From an uncultured Verrucomicrobiae bacterium (GTDB taxonomy: Bacteria; Verrucomicrobiota; Verrucomicrobiia; Chthoniobacterales; JAFAMB01): a stretch of 59,298 nucleotides of DNA. The notes beneath the pieces were generated by a model. The model searched no databases, had not been told where the DNA came from, and saw only the letters and a list, made by a program, of their open reading frames with translations. The stretch spans positions 1 to 59,298 of the forward strand of contig CAVXLD010000006.1 of assembly GCA_963762565.1 (NCBI GenBank), written 5' to 3'. Every line of letters starts with the position of its first letter. Position 1 is the stretch's first letter. A program made the translations under genes and the position numbers. Below, piece after piece: positions 4,328-58,054 of this stretch.

Positions 4328-4550
4328 CGGTAGGGCGAAAATCTCGGCGCGCCGAGGACGGACCACTCAGACTACCGGTACGCGCGCCGGATTTGAGCCG
4401 TGCCGTGGGGGTTGCCACCTCGCCGGCTCGATTGTCCTGAAAACACGATTATGCGCCTCGACGTTGCAGGCGCACGCATGGCTCAAATCCGGCGCGTAAA
4501 CATCGATAGAAATGGTTTGTCAGGGGCGCGCCGAGATTTTCGCCCTACCG
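4328..4550. repeat. Family B element flanked by inverted octamer arrays (4293-4327, 4560-4625)
   Basis: GGTAGGGCGAAAATCTCGGCGCG / CGCGCCGGATTTGAGCC / GGCTCAAATCCGGCGCG / CGCGCCGAGATTTTCGCCCTACC. Confidence 0.95.
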
Positions 4551-4633
4551 ACCCCGCGCCCCATCGCCCCTTCGCCGTGTCGCCCCTTCGCCGTTTCGCC
4601 CATTCGCCGTTTCGCCCATTCGCCCCCTCGCAA

Positions 4634-5032
4634 TCAGGGCGATGGTTTTGCCCAAGTGGCACGCAGCTTGGCCATCCGGCGGGCTCGAAATTCTTCAAGT
4701 TTCTGCTGCTGGTCCGGGTCTAGCAGCGGCGCCAATCCCGCCAGGGTCTGGTCGAAAGCCTGGTTATTTTCCTGTACCGTTTTTATCCGGACGGCGCGGA
4801 GCCTTTCGATGGCTTCATGAATTGGCGCCCTGACCTTCTCCTGTTGTTCCGGCGTCAAATGGAGCTGGTTCGTGAGATTTCGCATCACTGCTTGCTCCCA
4901 GGACACCGTCGGGGGCACTTTCGTGTTGAATTGGTGACGAGAGGTCAGTGTTAGCATTATCGTAGCCCCGCACAGGGCGCCGATGACAAAAAGCAGTGCG
5001 AACGAAAGTGTCAGTTTCCAGCCGAATCCCAT
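4634..5032 (-). CDS. Membrane-anchored Spy/CpxP-like (periplasmic sensor-like) helical protein
   Basis: N-terminal TM helix; LHLTPEQQEKV and LDPDQQQKL repeats of LTxxQ type. Confidence 0.8.
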   Translation of the reverse strand: MGFGWKLTLSFALLFVIGALCGATIMLTLTSRHQFNTKVPPTVSWEQAVMRNLTNQLHLTPEQQEKVRAPIHEAIERLRAVRIKTVQENNQAFDQTLAGLAPLLDPDQQQKLEEFRARRMAKLRATWAKPSP

Positions 5033-5298
5033 AGCGATTGCGCCATTTCGTCGACTGGATCCGGCTCTTCCTGCCCTGCCATCAGGGTTTGGAAGTTCCA
5101 GCCGACAAGTGCGGCAAAAATGACGAGTGCAGCCGAAATCGACAGAATGGAGGTCCGGAACGTGATCCGCGCCCTATGCAAAGCACCTAGATGCAGGGAG
5201 TAGACTCGGCCGGGGAAGTCGCTCGGCATGGAAGCAGGCTCTTCTTTGCCTGCTTCCTTGGCACGTGCGAATAACTGTTCCATCCCGTCGTTCGTCAT
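5011..5298 (-). CDS. Putative single-TM anti-sigma factor
   Basis: Overlaps the ECF sigma stop (ATGA coupling); short cytoplasmic part plus one TM helix. Confidence 0.72.
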   Translation of the reverse strand: MTNDGMEQLFARAKEAGKEEPASMPSDFPGRVYSLHLGALHRARITFRTSILSISAALVIFAALVGWNFQTLMAGQEEPDPVDEMAQSLWDSAGN

Positions 5299-5864
5299 TT
5301 TTCTAATCGCTGGACTGCCGCTGCGAGTTTTTGGCGTGCTCGGAAGGCGGTCACCTTAACTTTTGACGGAGTCCAGCCGGTAAGGTCACAGATTTCTGCG
5401 ATCGATTTTTCTTCTAAATGTAGCCAAGTGACAACGGTCCGCTCATCTGGTTTGAGGCCTTGCATCAAACGTTCCAGCAATTCTTTAGTCTCTTCCGGAG
5501 ACCGCTCGTTAGGCAGAATCGCTGAGTTTTTCAAATTGTCGAGAATGGCCTGTTGTTCTTCGCTGAAATCGGACCAGCGAAACTCGGGACGGACCTTTTG
5601 TTTTCTGAGCTGGTCGATACAAGTATTGACGGCGATGCGGGAGACCCAGTGCTCAAAGGGCATATCCGCCCGAAATTGATGGAGGCGAGAAAAGATTTTC
5701 AGGAAGACGTCTTGGCAAAGGTCTTCTTCCAGCTCTCGCCGGGGAAGATGGTTTCGAACGATGCGGATCACGATAGGATAGGTGAATTCGATCAGCTGCT
5801 TCGCTGCTGATTCATCATTCTTCCTCGCTCGCGCAATTAGGTTGAGAAGAGCGTCATCTGCCAT
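5295..5864 (-). CDS. ECF RNA polymerase sigma factor
   Basis: Region 2 (EEDLCQDVFLKI, FEHWVSRIAVNTCID) and region 4 HTH (SIAEICDLTGWTPSKVKVTAFRAR). Confidence 0.95.
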   Translation of the reverse strand: MADDALLNLIARARKNDESAAKQLIEFTYPIVIRIVRNHLPRRELEEDLCQDVFLKIFSRLHQFRADMPFEHWVSRIAVNTCIDQLRKQKVRPEFRWSDFSEEQQAILDNLKNSAILPNERSPEETKELLERLMQGLKPDERTVVTWLHLEEKSIAEICDLTGWTPSKVKVTAFRARQKLAAAVQRLEK

Positions 5865-6029
5865 TCAACGCGTTGATTCCATGGGCGCTGCGTCCGCCAG
5901 TTGCGCATGGGTCTTTATGAACGCAACCTACTAACATCGCAACCATAAACCCATAAAGCGCTCTCGGGGGCAGCTTGTGGCGACCTCCTGTTTGGACGGT
6001 TCAACCAATAAAATCATCAATCAAAGATT

Positions 6030-6449
6030 ATGTCCTTCCTCAAAGAATTCAGGGACTTTGCGATGAGAGGTTCCGTAATTGACCTCGCCATCGGTGTTAT
6101 TATCGGTGCAGCGTTCGGAAAGATTATTAACGCGCTTGTTAATAGTGTGATAATGCCCCCAATTGGTCTCCTTTTGGGGCGGGTAGATTTCTCCAGCCTG
6201 TTTTTGAATCTGTCGGGTCAACCGGCTGGGTCCTTGAAGGAGGCCACTGATAAGGGGTTGCCGGTTTTAGCTTACGGAGCATTTCTTAACACGGTTATCG
6301 AATTCTTGATCATTGCGTTCGTTTTGTTCCTGGTGATTAAGCAGGTCAACCGGTTCAAGAAACCTCCTGAAGCCCCGAAGACCCCCGAGCCGAGTGCGGA
6401 AGAGAAACTGCTGGGAGAGATTCGGGATATTTTAAAGGCTAGGAGCTAA
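6030..6449 (+). CDS. mscL: Large-conductance mechanosensitive channel
   Basis: [25 protein letters not shown]-terminus; [10 protein letters not shown]-terminus. Confidence 0.98.
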
Positions 6450-56095: not shown

Positions 56096-56200
56096 GGTAT
56101 GCAGATACGGGATAAGGGCAAAGAATTAACCGCGAATGGACACGAATGGATACGAATGAAAACTTAAAATTCACCACAGAGACACAGAGAACACGGAGAA

Positions 56201-56589
56201 AACCTTAACCGCGATGGACGCGAGTGTACGCGAAGTAGATCAGAAAAGACTAAATCCGAACCGCAGATGAATCCGCGGCCGCTCCGCTTTGGCGCGACTA
56301 GCTCCGATTGACGCAGATAGTTTCGGCTTCGGCTATGATTCATCTAAAAAGTGCCAATCGTGGATTTCTGGTCGTGTTATTCTTCCTACCGCGAAATCCG
56401 GGGCGATCTCGAGGTGCGACCCCTAAAATCAGCAAAATTCCCCTGACCTTGAACGAAGGAACTGAACTCATCTGCGTAAATCGGAGCTTGTCGCGCCAAA
56501 GCGGAGCGGCGGCGGATTCATCTGCGGTTGGTGTTCGGTTTTTGGGTCTGTTCGCGACCTTTCGTGTGCATTCGCGGTGAATTAAGGTT
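56201..56589. repeat. Long nested inverted repeat (about 390 bp), preceded by 9-10-mer arrays at 56128-56198
   Basis: AACCGCAGATGAATCCGC..GCTCCGCTTTGGCGCGAC..CCGATTGACGCAGAT mirrored at 56470-56529. Confidence 0.88.
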
Positions 56590-56655
56590 GCAACGATAGA
56601 CGCATTGCCGGTTCTTAAGGTTGCTGGTGTTAATGGAGTGTGCCAAGCTCAGATT

Positions 56656-57792
56656 GTGAAAAGTTTCACAAGGTCGCGTTTAGTTTCGAGATCGCTTTCT
56701 CATTTGTACGAAAAAGTGTCCGCCGGTGAACGGATTACTGAAGAGGACGCCGTTACACTCTTTCGTTCAGGTGATCTAAATTCATTGGGCCAAATCGCGA
56801 GCATTGTTCGCCGGCGCAAAAACGGCAACCGAGCGACCTATATTCTGAATCGATATATCAATTACTCGAATATCTGTGTTCTCTCGTGCCAATTCTGCGC
56901 TTTCGGCGCGCGTAAAAGGGATCCCCATGCCTTCGAAATGGCGATCCCCGAGATCGAAGCCGCTATGGCTGAGTCTGTGCGGCAAGGGGTCACCGAGGTG
57001 CACATGGTGGGAGGGCTCCATCCGACTTTGCCTGGCGAATGGTATATCGAACTTATTGAAAAGCTGCGCGCTCTCGATCCCAACCTTCATATTAAAGCTT
57101 TCACCGCGATTGAAATCCGGCACCTCGCAGAAAGGATCTTTAAGCTCCCCATTCAAGAGACGCTCGAGACTCTACGCCGGGCCGGCTTAAATTCATTGAC
57201 TGGAGGAGGCGCGGAAATATTCGATCCAGTTGTGCGGGATCGGATCTGTCGCGGCAAAGAAACCGCTGACGAATGGAAAGACGTCCATCGGATCTGGCAC
57301 GGCATGGGAGAACGAAGCACCTGCACGATGCTCTTTGGACATATCGAGACGATCGAGCAGCGGGTCGACCATCTTCGTCAATTACGGGAACTTCAGGATG
57401 AGACTCACGGGTTCACCGGGTTCATTCCTTTTTCCTTTGTGCCGGAAACGACGGAACTCTCGCATATCCGCGCGGCCTCGGCAGTAGACCAGCTTCGGAC
57501 TTTGGCGGTAAGCCGGATCTATCTAGATAATTTCGACCATCTGACCGGGTATTGGATCGCCCTGACTTTACCAGTGGCGCAGGTTTCACTTGCGTATGGA
57601 GTGGACGATCTTCACGGTACCTTAAAGGAAGAAAAGATCTTTCATATGGCCGGGTCAAAGACGCCCCAGGAACAGACGGTCGATACCCTGGAAAGGACGA
57701 TCCTGGAGGCGGGATATGAACCCGTCCAACGGGACAGCTATTATCGGCCGATCAATGGGTTGGCTCGCTCGGTGGAACCGGTGTCCGCGTGA
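56656..57792 (+). CDS. mqnE: Radical SAM aminofutalosine synthase (futalosine menaquinone pathway)
   Basis: INYSNICVLSCQFC; VHMVGGLHP; KAFTAIE; GGGAEIF; EEKIFHMAG. Confidence 0.88.
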   Translation: MKSFTRSRLVSRSLSHLYEKVSAGERITEEDAVTLFRSGDLNSLGQIASIVRRRKNGNRATYILNRYINYSNICVLSCQFCAFGARKRDPHAFEMAIPEIEAAMAESVRQGVTEVHMVGGLHPTLPGEWYIELIEKLRALDPNLHIKAFTAIEIRHLAERIFKLPIQETLETLRRAGLNSLTGGGAEIFDPVVRDRICRGKETADEWKDVHRIWHGMGERSTCTMLFGHIETIEQRVDHLRQLRELQDETHGFTGFIPFSFVPETTELSHIRAASAVDQLRTLAVSRIYLDNFDHLTGYWIALTLPVAQVSLAYGVDDLHGTLKEEKIFHMAGSKTPQEQTVDTLERTILEAGYEPVQRDSYYRPINGLARSVEPVSA

Positions 57793-57834
57793 GGCGAAGG
57801 GGCGAAACGGCGAATGGGCGATGGGGCGCGGGGT

Positions 57835-58054
57835 CGGTAGGGCGAAAATCTCGGCGCGCCCCTGACAAACCATTTCTATCGATGTTTACGCGCCGGATTT
57901 GAGCCATGCGTGCGCCTGCAACGTCGAGGCGCATAATCGTTTTCAGGACAATCGAGCCGGCGAGGTGGCAACCCCACGGCACGGCTCAAATCCGGCGCGC
58001 GTACACGTAGTCTGAATGGTCCGTCCTCGGCGCGCCGAGATTTTCGCCCTACCG
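57835..58054. repeat. Family B element, near-identical inverted copy of 4328-4550; flanked by octamer arrays (57793-57825, 58057-58158)
   Basis: Manual alignment: about 3 substitutions and 3 indel nt over about 240 bp. Confidence 0.95.

Follow-up and report, generated by a model that had tools for sequence, protein, structure and literature searches.

The family-B copies in the window (the whole stretch of 59,298 nucleotides analysed here) very likely represent a REPIN that is copied around the genome by a RAYT encoded on C7, with the 30-base loops of its arms drifting neutrally. This reading is drawn because family-B arms, besides forming the paired elements, also bracket the RAYT gene on C7. 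The putative link between enzyme and element rests on adjacency and co-descent.

Architecture and distribution of family-B elements

The sequence-only reading described a layout of four blocks and two near-fixed loops at five positions of the window. The layout is present at all of them, in full in four copies, while the copy at 12275 deviates (Table 1). An exact arm pattern returned 65 matches in the genome (G000) and 0 for the reversed control, thus the family-B pattern is not a product of chance. A blocks occur 114 times in the genome and are followed by the B block in 95 cases, always after 29–33 nt, the other 19 being truncated, collapsed or rearranged. The loops of these 95 intact arms have a mean length of 30.4 nt (SD 0.84), so that the narrow length noted in the window holds for every intact arm of the genome, and it extends to the relatives. 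Paired elements number 42, with cores of 76–97 nt in 38 of them; the full range of core lengths, 76–143 nt and beyond, contrasts with the 29–33 nt of the loops. Complete copies are spread over 10 of the 15 contigs. The bulged stem and variable loop bring integron attC sites to mind, but the copies are dispersed rather than arrayed with cassettes.

The arm (~69 nt) consists of GTAG, a 3-bp stem, a GA/GA mismatch, 5 bp, a bulged T and 7 bp, and its stem closes a loop that displays no excess structure of its own. GTAG is conserved at 98–100% per position over the 95 arms, as are the GA/GA mismatch and the bulged T. A single variable stem pair, found in three variants, is Watson-Crick in 94 of the 95 arms and in 97% of the pooled arms (n = 260) against 38% expected, with the proviso that this covariation may stem from as few as three ancestral events. 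This upholds the earlier view of a conserved structure, in stems and hairpin pairing, combined with free loop sequence. Both arms carry the same pair variant in 35 of the 42 elements. In the remaining 7 the arms differ at this position and each arm keeps its own pair, which identifies the arm hairpin as the conserved unit and weakens the proposal of a single decayed hairpin.

Table 1. Positions of family-B copies and their parts in the window.
Feature	Position	Strand	Details
Copy 1	4330..4548	.	full A-loop-B-core-B'-loop-A' layout
Copy 1, left arm	4330-4399		loop 4352-4382, 31 nt
Copy 1, core	4400-4479		80 nt
Copy 1, right arm	4480-4548		loop 4497-4526, 30 nt
Copy 2 (variant)	12278..12590	.	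loops 30/29 nt, core 90 nt
Copy 2, GTAG foot	12278-12289
Copy 2, first loop	12387-12416		30 nt
Copy 2, blocks	12417-12540		B 12417-12433; core 12434-12523; B' 12524-12540
Copy 2, second loop	12541-12569		29 nt
Copy 3	26328..26543	.	loops 26350-26378 (29 nt) and 26491-26521 (31 nt); core 78 nt
Copy 4	51517..51743	.	loops 51539-51567 (29 nt) and 51691-51721 (31 nt); core 89 nt
Copy 5	57837..58052	.	loops 57859-57888 (30 nt) and 58000-58030 (31 nt); core 77 nt

Three of the five window copies are wholly intergenic and two touch the 3' end of an open reading frame. Copies 1 and 5 represent one recent inverted duplicate, identical in 213 of 219 columns, and both are flanked by octamer arrays; copy 1 lies between the convergent ORFs 3471..4283 (+) and 4634..5032 (-), and copy 5 lies downstream of mqnE. 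A candidate empty site at copy 5, where one contig of run X5 skips 57752-58164, was not counted; the joint lies inside mqnE. In copy 2, positioned between ftsH and a type I GAPDH gene, the left A block is interrupted by an insert of ~87 nt (12290-12376), while the degenerate A' (12570-12590) is one base short and has GTGG as its foot. Copy 3 overlaps the final 45 nt of a TetR-like open frame (25560..26372) and is extended on its outer side by an imperfect inverted stretch of ~29 nt. The covarying pair of copy 4 differs between the arms (T:A left, C:G right), and its GTAG foot supplies the TAG stop codon of ORF 50531..51520.

The candidate cognate RAYT and its relatives

The RAYT/TnpA-REP gene is located outside the window at G000:C7:542250-542711 on the minus strand and encodes 154 aa. 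It is bracketed by family-B arms at C7:542106 and C7:542883, where it occupies the place of the usual 76–97-nt core. Family-B arms thus flank a Y1/HUH (RAYT) gene, which supports the suggestion that the element is non-autonomous and tied to such an enzyme. The protein was retrieved by a custom HMM (E 2e-37), and its only family match is NF047646, REP-associated tyrosine transposase (E 2e-19). Its score of 69.8 bits lies below the cut-off of 80, which a C10 paralogue with 47% identity passes with 84.4; the shortfall weakens the formal label, and in particular a placement in group 2, but leaves the RAYT reading intact. It scores 12.6 against Pfam PF01797 (cut-off 23) and is therefore missed by that search, and none of the PF01797 matches in G000 (12) or in five relatives (30) is flanked by family B. 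The match to the TnpA-REP structure 4ER8 (E 1e-6) aligns H66-V-H68, Y123 and N127 with H59-M-H61, Y115 and N119, which are named as active-site residues in the description of that enzyme (PMC3479197). E. coli TnpA-REP has the metal ligand H123; in contrast, the C7 RAYT has Ala at this place and no equivalent His.

Co-descent of enzyme and arms is seen among the relatives. Family-B-type arms lie within 400 nt of 6 of the 29 RAYT loci from the family search, namely the C7 gene and five at 62–68% identity, and are absent from the other 23. Among 47 metagenome relatives, the 2 at 80–84% identity also carry family-B arms. In the tree, a branch with support 100/97 separates the arm-flanked proteins (7 of 30 rows) from the remainder. 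The arms beside sister RAYTs in G008 have short loops and measure 42 nt as against 67–71. No RAYT was present in the DNA fetched around 91 genome-collection loci, which for 80 loci extended 2.5 kb to either side. The arm pattern was not found in viral contigs, and 400 sampled genomes from elsewhere in the class yielded one isolated A block only.

Family-B copies appear to come and go between related genomes. An intact arm occupies the same site as in G000 in only 4 of 49 syntenic rows, and at locus L073 family B is found where G000 has another repeat family, between flanks 98–99% identical to those of G000. The genome with this locus is labelled Actinomycetota and holds just this one element; it was taken as a probable assembly or binning mixture rather than as a case of horizontal transfer. 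Neither a consistent target-site duplication of 3–6 nt (42 elements) nor, within 30 nt beyond the foot, a conserved CT of the kind at which group-2 TnpA-REP enzymes cleave single-stranded REPs was observed.

By analogy with the biochemistry of E. coli TnpA-REP, the arm would fold on single-stranded DNA and the RAYT would recognize GTAG and the bulged lower stem. The catalytic tyrosine would nick nearby and strand transfer would move or replace the doublet. The loop would not be read for its sequence and would thus gather substitutions and 1–2-nt indels. In the least certain step, weak selection on hairpin folding or stability may keep the loop near 30 nt.

Loop divergence and alternative explanations

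All but one of the 95 loops are unique, with nearest-neighbour identities forming a continuum from 0.59 to 1.0 over a common positional consensus. The loops at 12275 and 51515, which had appeared unrelated to the others, belong to this degenerate consensus (cross identity 0.49 against 0.43 for shuffled loops), and the reported partial complementarity of paired loops is on average weak, at 0.52 within an element and 0.49 between elements. Neither internal covariation nor a folding excess over shuffles was seen in the loops. In 13 orthologous arm pairs at 10 sites, loop identity is 0.66 and identity at four-fold sites 0.69, the latter a crude estimate as the chosen frame has internal stops in 9 of the 13 rows; the 4 clean rows agree (0.52/0.55, 0.62/0.55, 0.71/0.71 and 0.81/0.73). 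Because gapped comparison of loops hardly falls below an identity of about 0.43, the loops may be more diverged than they appear, and low-identity pairs could be independent insertions into one spacer. The stems of these pairs differ at 1.15 of 39 positions, a conservation inflated by the retrieval of relatives through the exact pattern. Loop differences are scattered substitutions in step with synonymous sites; loop hypermutation was rejected as unneeded, loop divergence being close to that of synonymous sites. Loop length differs in 10 of the 13 pairs, yet lengths are spread no more widely across the family (mean squared difference 1.42) than between orthologues (1.46, with an interval of 0.7–2.3). 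Stabilizing selection on loop length is suggestive only.

These properties bear on the proposal that the loops are acquired, guide-like sequences shown on a fixed scaffold. Their uniqueness and narrow length would suit such a function; however, the consensus and identity continuum, together with the pace and scatter of orthologous changes, point to loops inherited with point changes. Furthermore, 269 loops matched the masked host genome barely better than shuffles (27.9 and 27.5 bits), and searches of phages (4 of the 5 window copies) and plasmids (1 of 5) returned fragments at E 0.06–0.7 or nothing, a weak blank since elements of the host group may be scarce or lacking in these collections. 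The guide proposal is therefore unsupported; it is largely refuted by the vertical inheritance of the loops and has become extremely improbable. Another alternative describes family B as a MITE that has long terminal inverted repeats and derives from a DDE transposon of the cut-and-paste type, its inner blocks being remnants of a decayed long hairpin. The entire 51515 copy is predicted to be most stable when folded end to end (-78.9 kcal/mol, z -9.4 against 200 shuffles), and the predominance of elements with one variant in both arms is consistent with this origin. The gene between the arms, in contrast, is a Y1 HUH enzyme and not a DDE transposase, no consistent target-site duplication is seen, and all 7 mixed elements keep pairing within arms and lose it between them, leaving a MITE origin a very slight chance.

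A third explanation accepts the REPIN origin and holds that copies now in place persist mainly through a host function that fixes stems and loop length, such as a double-stranded pair of protein-binding sites with a spacing of about three helical turns, or a hairpin at the mRNA 3' end. It would account for ~97% stem identity between orthologues against a divergence of ~30% at neutral sites, for 37 fixed positions at which 94 arms have 0–2 mismatches and 21 arms 4–8, for a spread of loop lengths no larger in the family than between orthologues, and for loops of 29–33 nt beside cores of variable length. However, the compensatory change within arms points to a folded single strand rather than to duplex binding boxes, most sites are not common to congeners, and the orientation of flanking genes, by a crude ORF proxy, is mixed. 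The interval on orthologous length spread is also wide, and the 42-nt arms beside the G008 sister RAYTs indicate that RAYTs of this clade can do without a 30-nt loop. A predominant host function is thus improbable, and the RAYT-copied REPIN is the preferred reading. A bolder reading, in which stabilizing selection acts on the loop purely as a ruler of length while the loop also serves as a neutral clock, resident stems are actively maintained in place (through host selection, or through recopying or exchange of single arms by the RAYT), and the RAYT cassette is gained, lost or moved among ~99% identical strains, is offered tentatively and is on the whole doubtful. If true, movement of the cassette would run counter to the view of RAYTs as fixed single-copy genes, and the family would offer a self-dating natural experiment on the persistence of REPINs.

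Significance and relation to known REP systems

With family B, the range of REPIN-RAYT systems comes to include soil Chthoniobacterales and an unusually large REP, and the probable cognate enzyme has been identified even though a standard Pfam search misses it. In every arm an apparently neutral 30-nt stretch lies beside a nearly invariant stem; therefore single copies can be dated and preservation of the stem in place can be asked about. The family thereby bears on why REPINs persist and on what the host gains.

In Pseudomonas fluorescens SBW25, several REPIN systems are described per genome, with one cognate RAYT per repeat family (PMC3116915, PMC3337134), and REPIN spacers that all differ and have discrete lengths (PMC3337134). 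Family B shares these traits and likewise comprises two inverted REPs around a variable spacer, is dispersed and, in the window, mostly extragenic, can by prediction fold as a whole doublet into a hairpin, and has a putative cognate RAYT flanked by the same REP type, also at the closest homologues. In contrast to the SBW25 elements as described, each ~69-nt family-B hairpin has its own 30-nt variable loop, which results in three variable segments; the whole measures ~220 nt against ~100 nt for a typical REPIN; the variable parts appear not to form the hairpin stated for the SBW25 spacer, a trait of those elements and not of every REP dimer; and 42 paired copies compare with hundreds.

At the level of the arm, family B and the published group-2 TnpA-REP/REP systems have in common the GTAG foot, a stem with conserved mismatches and a bulge, free loop sequence and an HUH motif with a catalytic Tyr (E. 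coli REPtron, 4ER8, PMC3479197; Marinomonas REPtron Ma, PMC8266576). Group-2 loops are described as non-specific, and the large, poorly conserved loops of Marinomonas REPs provide a published precedent for long, poorly conserved REP loops (PMC8266576). By the text description, however, REP-Ma measures 38–42 nt in all, whereas the narrowly bounded family-B loop alone takes up ~30 nt. Rfam returned no match at gathering score for family B in the window, only 3 tRNAs. GTAG repeats are reported in Verrucomicrobia (O. terrae) by Di Nocera et al. 2013 (PMC3733652), a paper whose main text does not contain the name Chthoniobacter. Family B resembles the GTAG-24 family described there in having GTAG on the outside of HH dimers, long stems with unpaired GA or 1-nt bulges, and complementary stem variants that define subfamilies. 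Compared by description only, the largest non-complementary loops of the GTAG families span 9–15 nt, with 27 nt reached only by a self-complementary loop. Since family B displays the REPIN and group-2 REP features that were tested, its earlier presentation as a new element class is not supported; it is a member of the known REPIN kind and not a new guide-based system.

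Layout and arm hairpin of family B

Family B is a palindromic element in which an outer and an inner block, separated by a loop, form an arm, and two inverted arms enclose a core. The two blocks proposed by the sequence-only reading are both present in the window where that reading had placed them, and the layout that it assigned to five copies is complete in four (loops 29-31 nt, cores 77-89 nt); the 12275 copy is a variant interrupted by an insert within its left outer block. This interrupted block occurs six times in the host genome (G000), and because a congener displays an uninterrupted block at one orthologous site, the insert is secondary. 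The insert is itself a second small inverted-repeat element. G000, a 6.1-Mb genome with the window as its contig C6, contains 40 complete four-block clusters, or 42 paired elements once longer cores are allowed. The inner block follows 95 of the 114 outer blocks, always at a spacing of 29-33 nt, the remaining 19 being truncated, collapsed or rearranged. In relatives the loops span 26-35 nt (174 distinct arms). The exact arm pattern is found in 7 of the 43 genomes of the bacterial family, in two genera, with 0 matches to a reversed control, and the outer block has one occurrence among 400 other genomes of the class.

From its GTAG foot upward, the arm folds into paired segments of 3, 5 and 7 bp; a GA/GA mismatch separates the first two, and a bulged T the second from the third, which closes the loop. 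Every fixed position is 96-100% conserved. A single stem position is free to be T, A or C, and the opposing base co-varies, the pair being Watson-Crick in 94/95 arms and in 97% of 260 pooled arms vs 38% expected. No other position of the element covaries strongly, and just a few ancestral events may lie behind the pattern. Both arms carry the same variant in 35 of 42 elements, while in the other seven they differ and pairing is preserved within each arm. Thus, the conserved unit of family B is the arm hairpin, although the end-to-end fold of the element is the more stable by prediction (z -9.4 against shuffles).

Several features adjoin individual copies. Within the window, copies 1 and 5 are recent duplicates in inverted orientation (213/219 columns identical), the TAG of the foot in copy 4 doubles as the stop codon of an ORF, and copy 3 covers the last part of a TetR-like frame, with an imperfect inverted copy, ~29 nt, of adjoining sequence at its border. 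Foot-like octamer arrays (TCGCCnnn, at least three units) lie within 80 nt of 22/95 family-B arms and near 4/419 and 13/444 copies of two other repeat families; they may originate at the element end, through slippage or repeated copying. The window also holds long intergenic heptamer microsatellites.

Coordinates of family-B-associated and neighbouring features
Feature	Location	Remark
Insert in family-B outer block	window 12290-12376; five sites on G000 contig C3	~87 nt, same position in all 6
Octamer arrays near family B	window 4285-4327, 4551-4631, 57793-57834, 58055-58175; genome-wide	
444-copy GTAG-foot family	window e.g. 3086-3109, 23105-23128	several in window
Foot TAG of copy 4	window 51518-51520	ORF 50531..51520
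Copy 3, end of TetR-like frame	window 26328-26372	
Heptamer microsatellites	window 25446-25567, 6468-6558	
Family-B RAYT	G000:C7:542250-542711	
Second RAYT	G000:C10:17378-17827	
RAYT locus of G000 contig C7	L142:1588-2432	

The family-B RAYT and turnover of sites

A Pfam Y1_Tnp search returned 12 genes in G000 and 30 in five relatives, none of them with family-B flanks. A second search, using a profile built from these Y1 proteins, revealed an additional gene on contig C7, missed by Pfam Y1_Tnp, which occupies the core position between two ordinary family-B arms; the sequence-only reading had proposed looking for copies that flank a Y1/HUH gene of this type, the REP-associated tyrosine transposase (RAYT). 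The sole model match of its protein is REP-associated tyrosine transposase (E 2e-19, 69.8 bits, cut-off 80) and the sole structure match is E. coli TnpA-REP 4ER8 (E 1e-6). The protein aligns at the HUH motif, the catalytic tyrosine and N119, with Ala where H123 stands (residue roles from the accessible part of PMC3479197). Family-B-type arms lie within 400 nt of 6 of the 29 RAYT loci of the family search (L171 omitted), namely the C7 gene and five at 62-68% identity, the other 23 being without them, and also at 2 of 47 metagenome relatives, which are 80-84% identical. One of these two is frameshifted and was left out of the 30-row tree, where a single branch (support 100/97) separates the seven arm-flanked proteins from all other rows. 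Two of the seven, both from G008, a genome of another genus, have a short-loop sister arm on one or both sides (42 vs 67-71 nt); this RAYT clade therefore does not need the 30-nt loop. Enzyme and element are tied by the position of the gene between arms and by co-descent.

Long-loop arms are also paired with short-loop sister arms at four G008 loci (L041, L042, L043, L045), and arm pairs there form BIME-like tandem arrays in which 2-5 units repeat every ~190-230 nt. G000 carries many abundant repeat families side by side and at least 16 Y1/RAYT-like ORFs, many between their own distinct inverted repeats. A second RAYT that Pfam missed, on contig C10, shares 47% identity with the family-B RAYT and is bordered by a far commoner repeat family, with 444 copies, that has the same GTAG foot.

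Family B is polymorphic by site. For only 4 of 49 syntenic rows in relatives, with one site appearing twice, does G000 carry an intact arm at the corresponding place. In one record with flanks 98-99% identical, family B occupies a site where G000 has a different repeat family, in agreement with the turnover of REPINs (inverted REP pairs) at fixed positions described in the accessible part of bioRxiv 2024.10.14.618302. At the RAYT locus, 2 of the 4 runs compared, both from soil, yield single contigs, ~99% identical to the locus in both flanks, with 151 or 197 other letters replacing the whole cassette, and a congener (L126) has a lone arm; thus, the C7 RAYT is not a fixed resident of this locus. 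The 42 elements show no target-site duplication, and an exact inverted extension of at least 5 nt past the foot occurs in 9/42 vs 5.5% of cross pairs. Toward one end of a 3.5-Mb contig labelled Actinomycetota (L073, from genome G443) lies a stretch 98-99% identical to G000 contig C15; it probably reflects an assembly or binning mixture.

Length and sequence of the loops

The narrow loop spacing noted in the window holds genome-wide, since no loop among the intact G000 arms (95/95) falls outside 29-33 nt, in contrast to core lengths of 76 to 143 nt, where nested repeats and even a RAYT gene are tolerated. Loop indels do happen, 10 of the 13 orthologous pairs being unequal by 1-2 nt, yet the mean squared difference in loop length is not larger family-wide (1.42) than between orthologues (1.46, bootstrap 0.7-2.3). 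Weak stabilizing selection on loop length is favoured but not proven, because broken arms, having lost the inner block, escape the count.

The sequence-only reading had also suggested that the loops might be guide-like. In G000, 94 of 95 loops are unique, but they have a common positional consensus (mean identity 0.49 vs 0.43 shuffled), with nearest-neighbour identity continuous from 0.59 to 1.0, and no folding excess was found in them. Across 13 orthologous arm pairs at 10 congener sites, in relatives chosen by exact motif, identity is 0.66 for loops (gapped, with a high floor), 0.69 for flanking four-fold degenerate sites (with imperfect frame choice in 9/13 rows) and 0.60 for the inner core, some low-identity pairs perhaps being independent insertions; stems of the same pairs differ at 1.15 of 39 positions. 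Against the masked host genome, the best matches of 269 loops score hardly above those of shuffles (27.9 vs 27.5 bits), and searches of phages with four of the five window copies (chance-level matches or none) and of plasmids with one copy (chance-level matches) covered collections where the host group may be poorly represented. The consensus, the divergence alongside four-fold sites and the chance-level matches therefore make guide loops very unlikely.

Family B among REPIN systems

Following the group-2 TnpA-REP work in the accessible part of PMC8266576, the enzyme would recognise the single strand in its folded form, by GTAG and by the bulge, the loop would be non-specific in recognition, and nicking followed by strand transfer would move the element. 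The RAYT likely belongs to group 2 specifically, with a score under the curated cut-off. Family B works like a REPIN and fits those REPIN features open to testing, rather than forming the new element class first proposed. Family B itself was not found in the accessible literature; PMC3733652 and PMC8266576 may bear on the point through their figures and supplements. In the accessible parts of PMC3337134, PMC3116915 and bioRxiv 2021.07.10.451892, REPINs have highly variable spacers of discrete length, as does family B, and the Marinomonas REPs of PMC8266576 likewise display large, poorly conserved loops. The difference of family B is one of size, a 30-nt unstructured loop within each REP.
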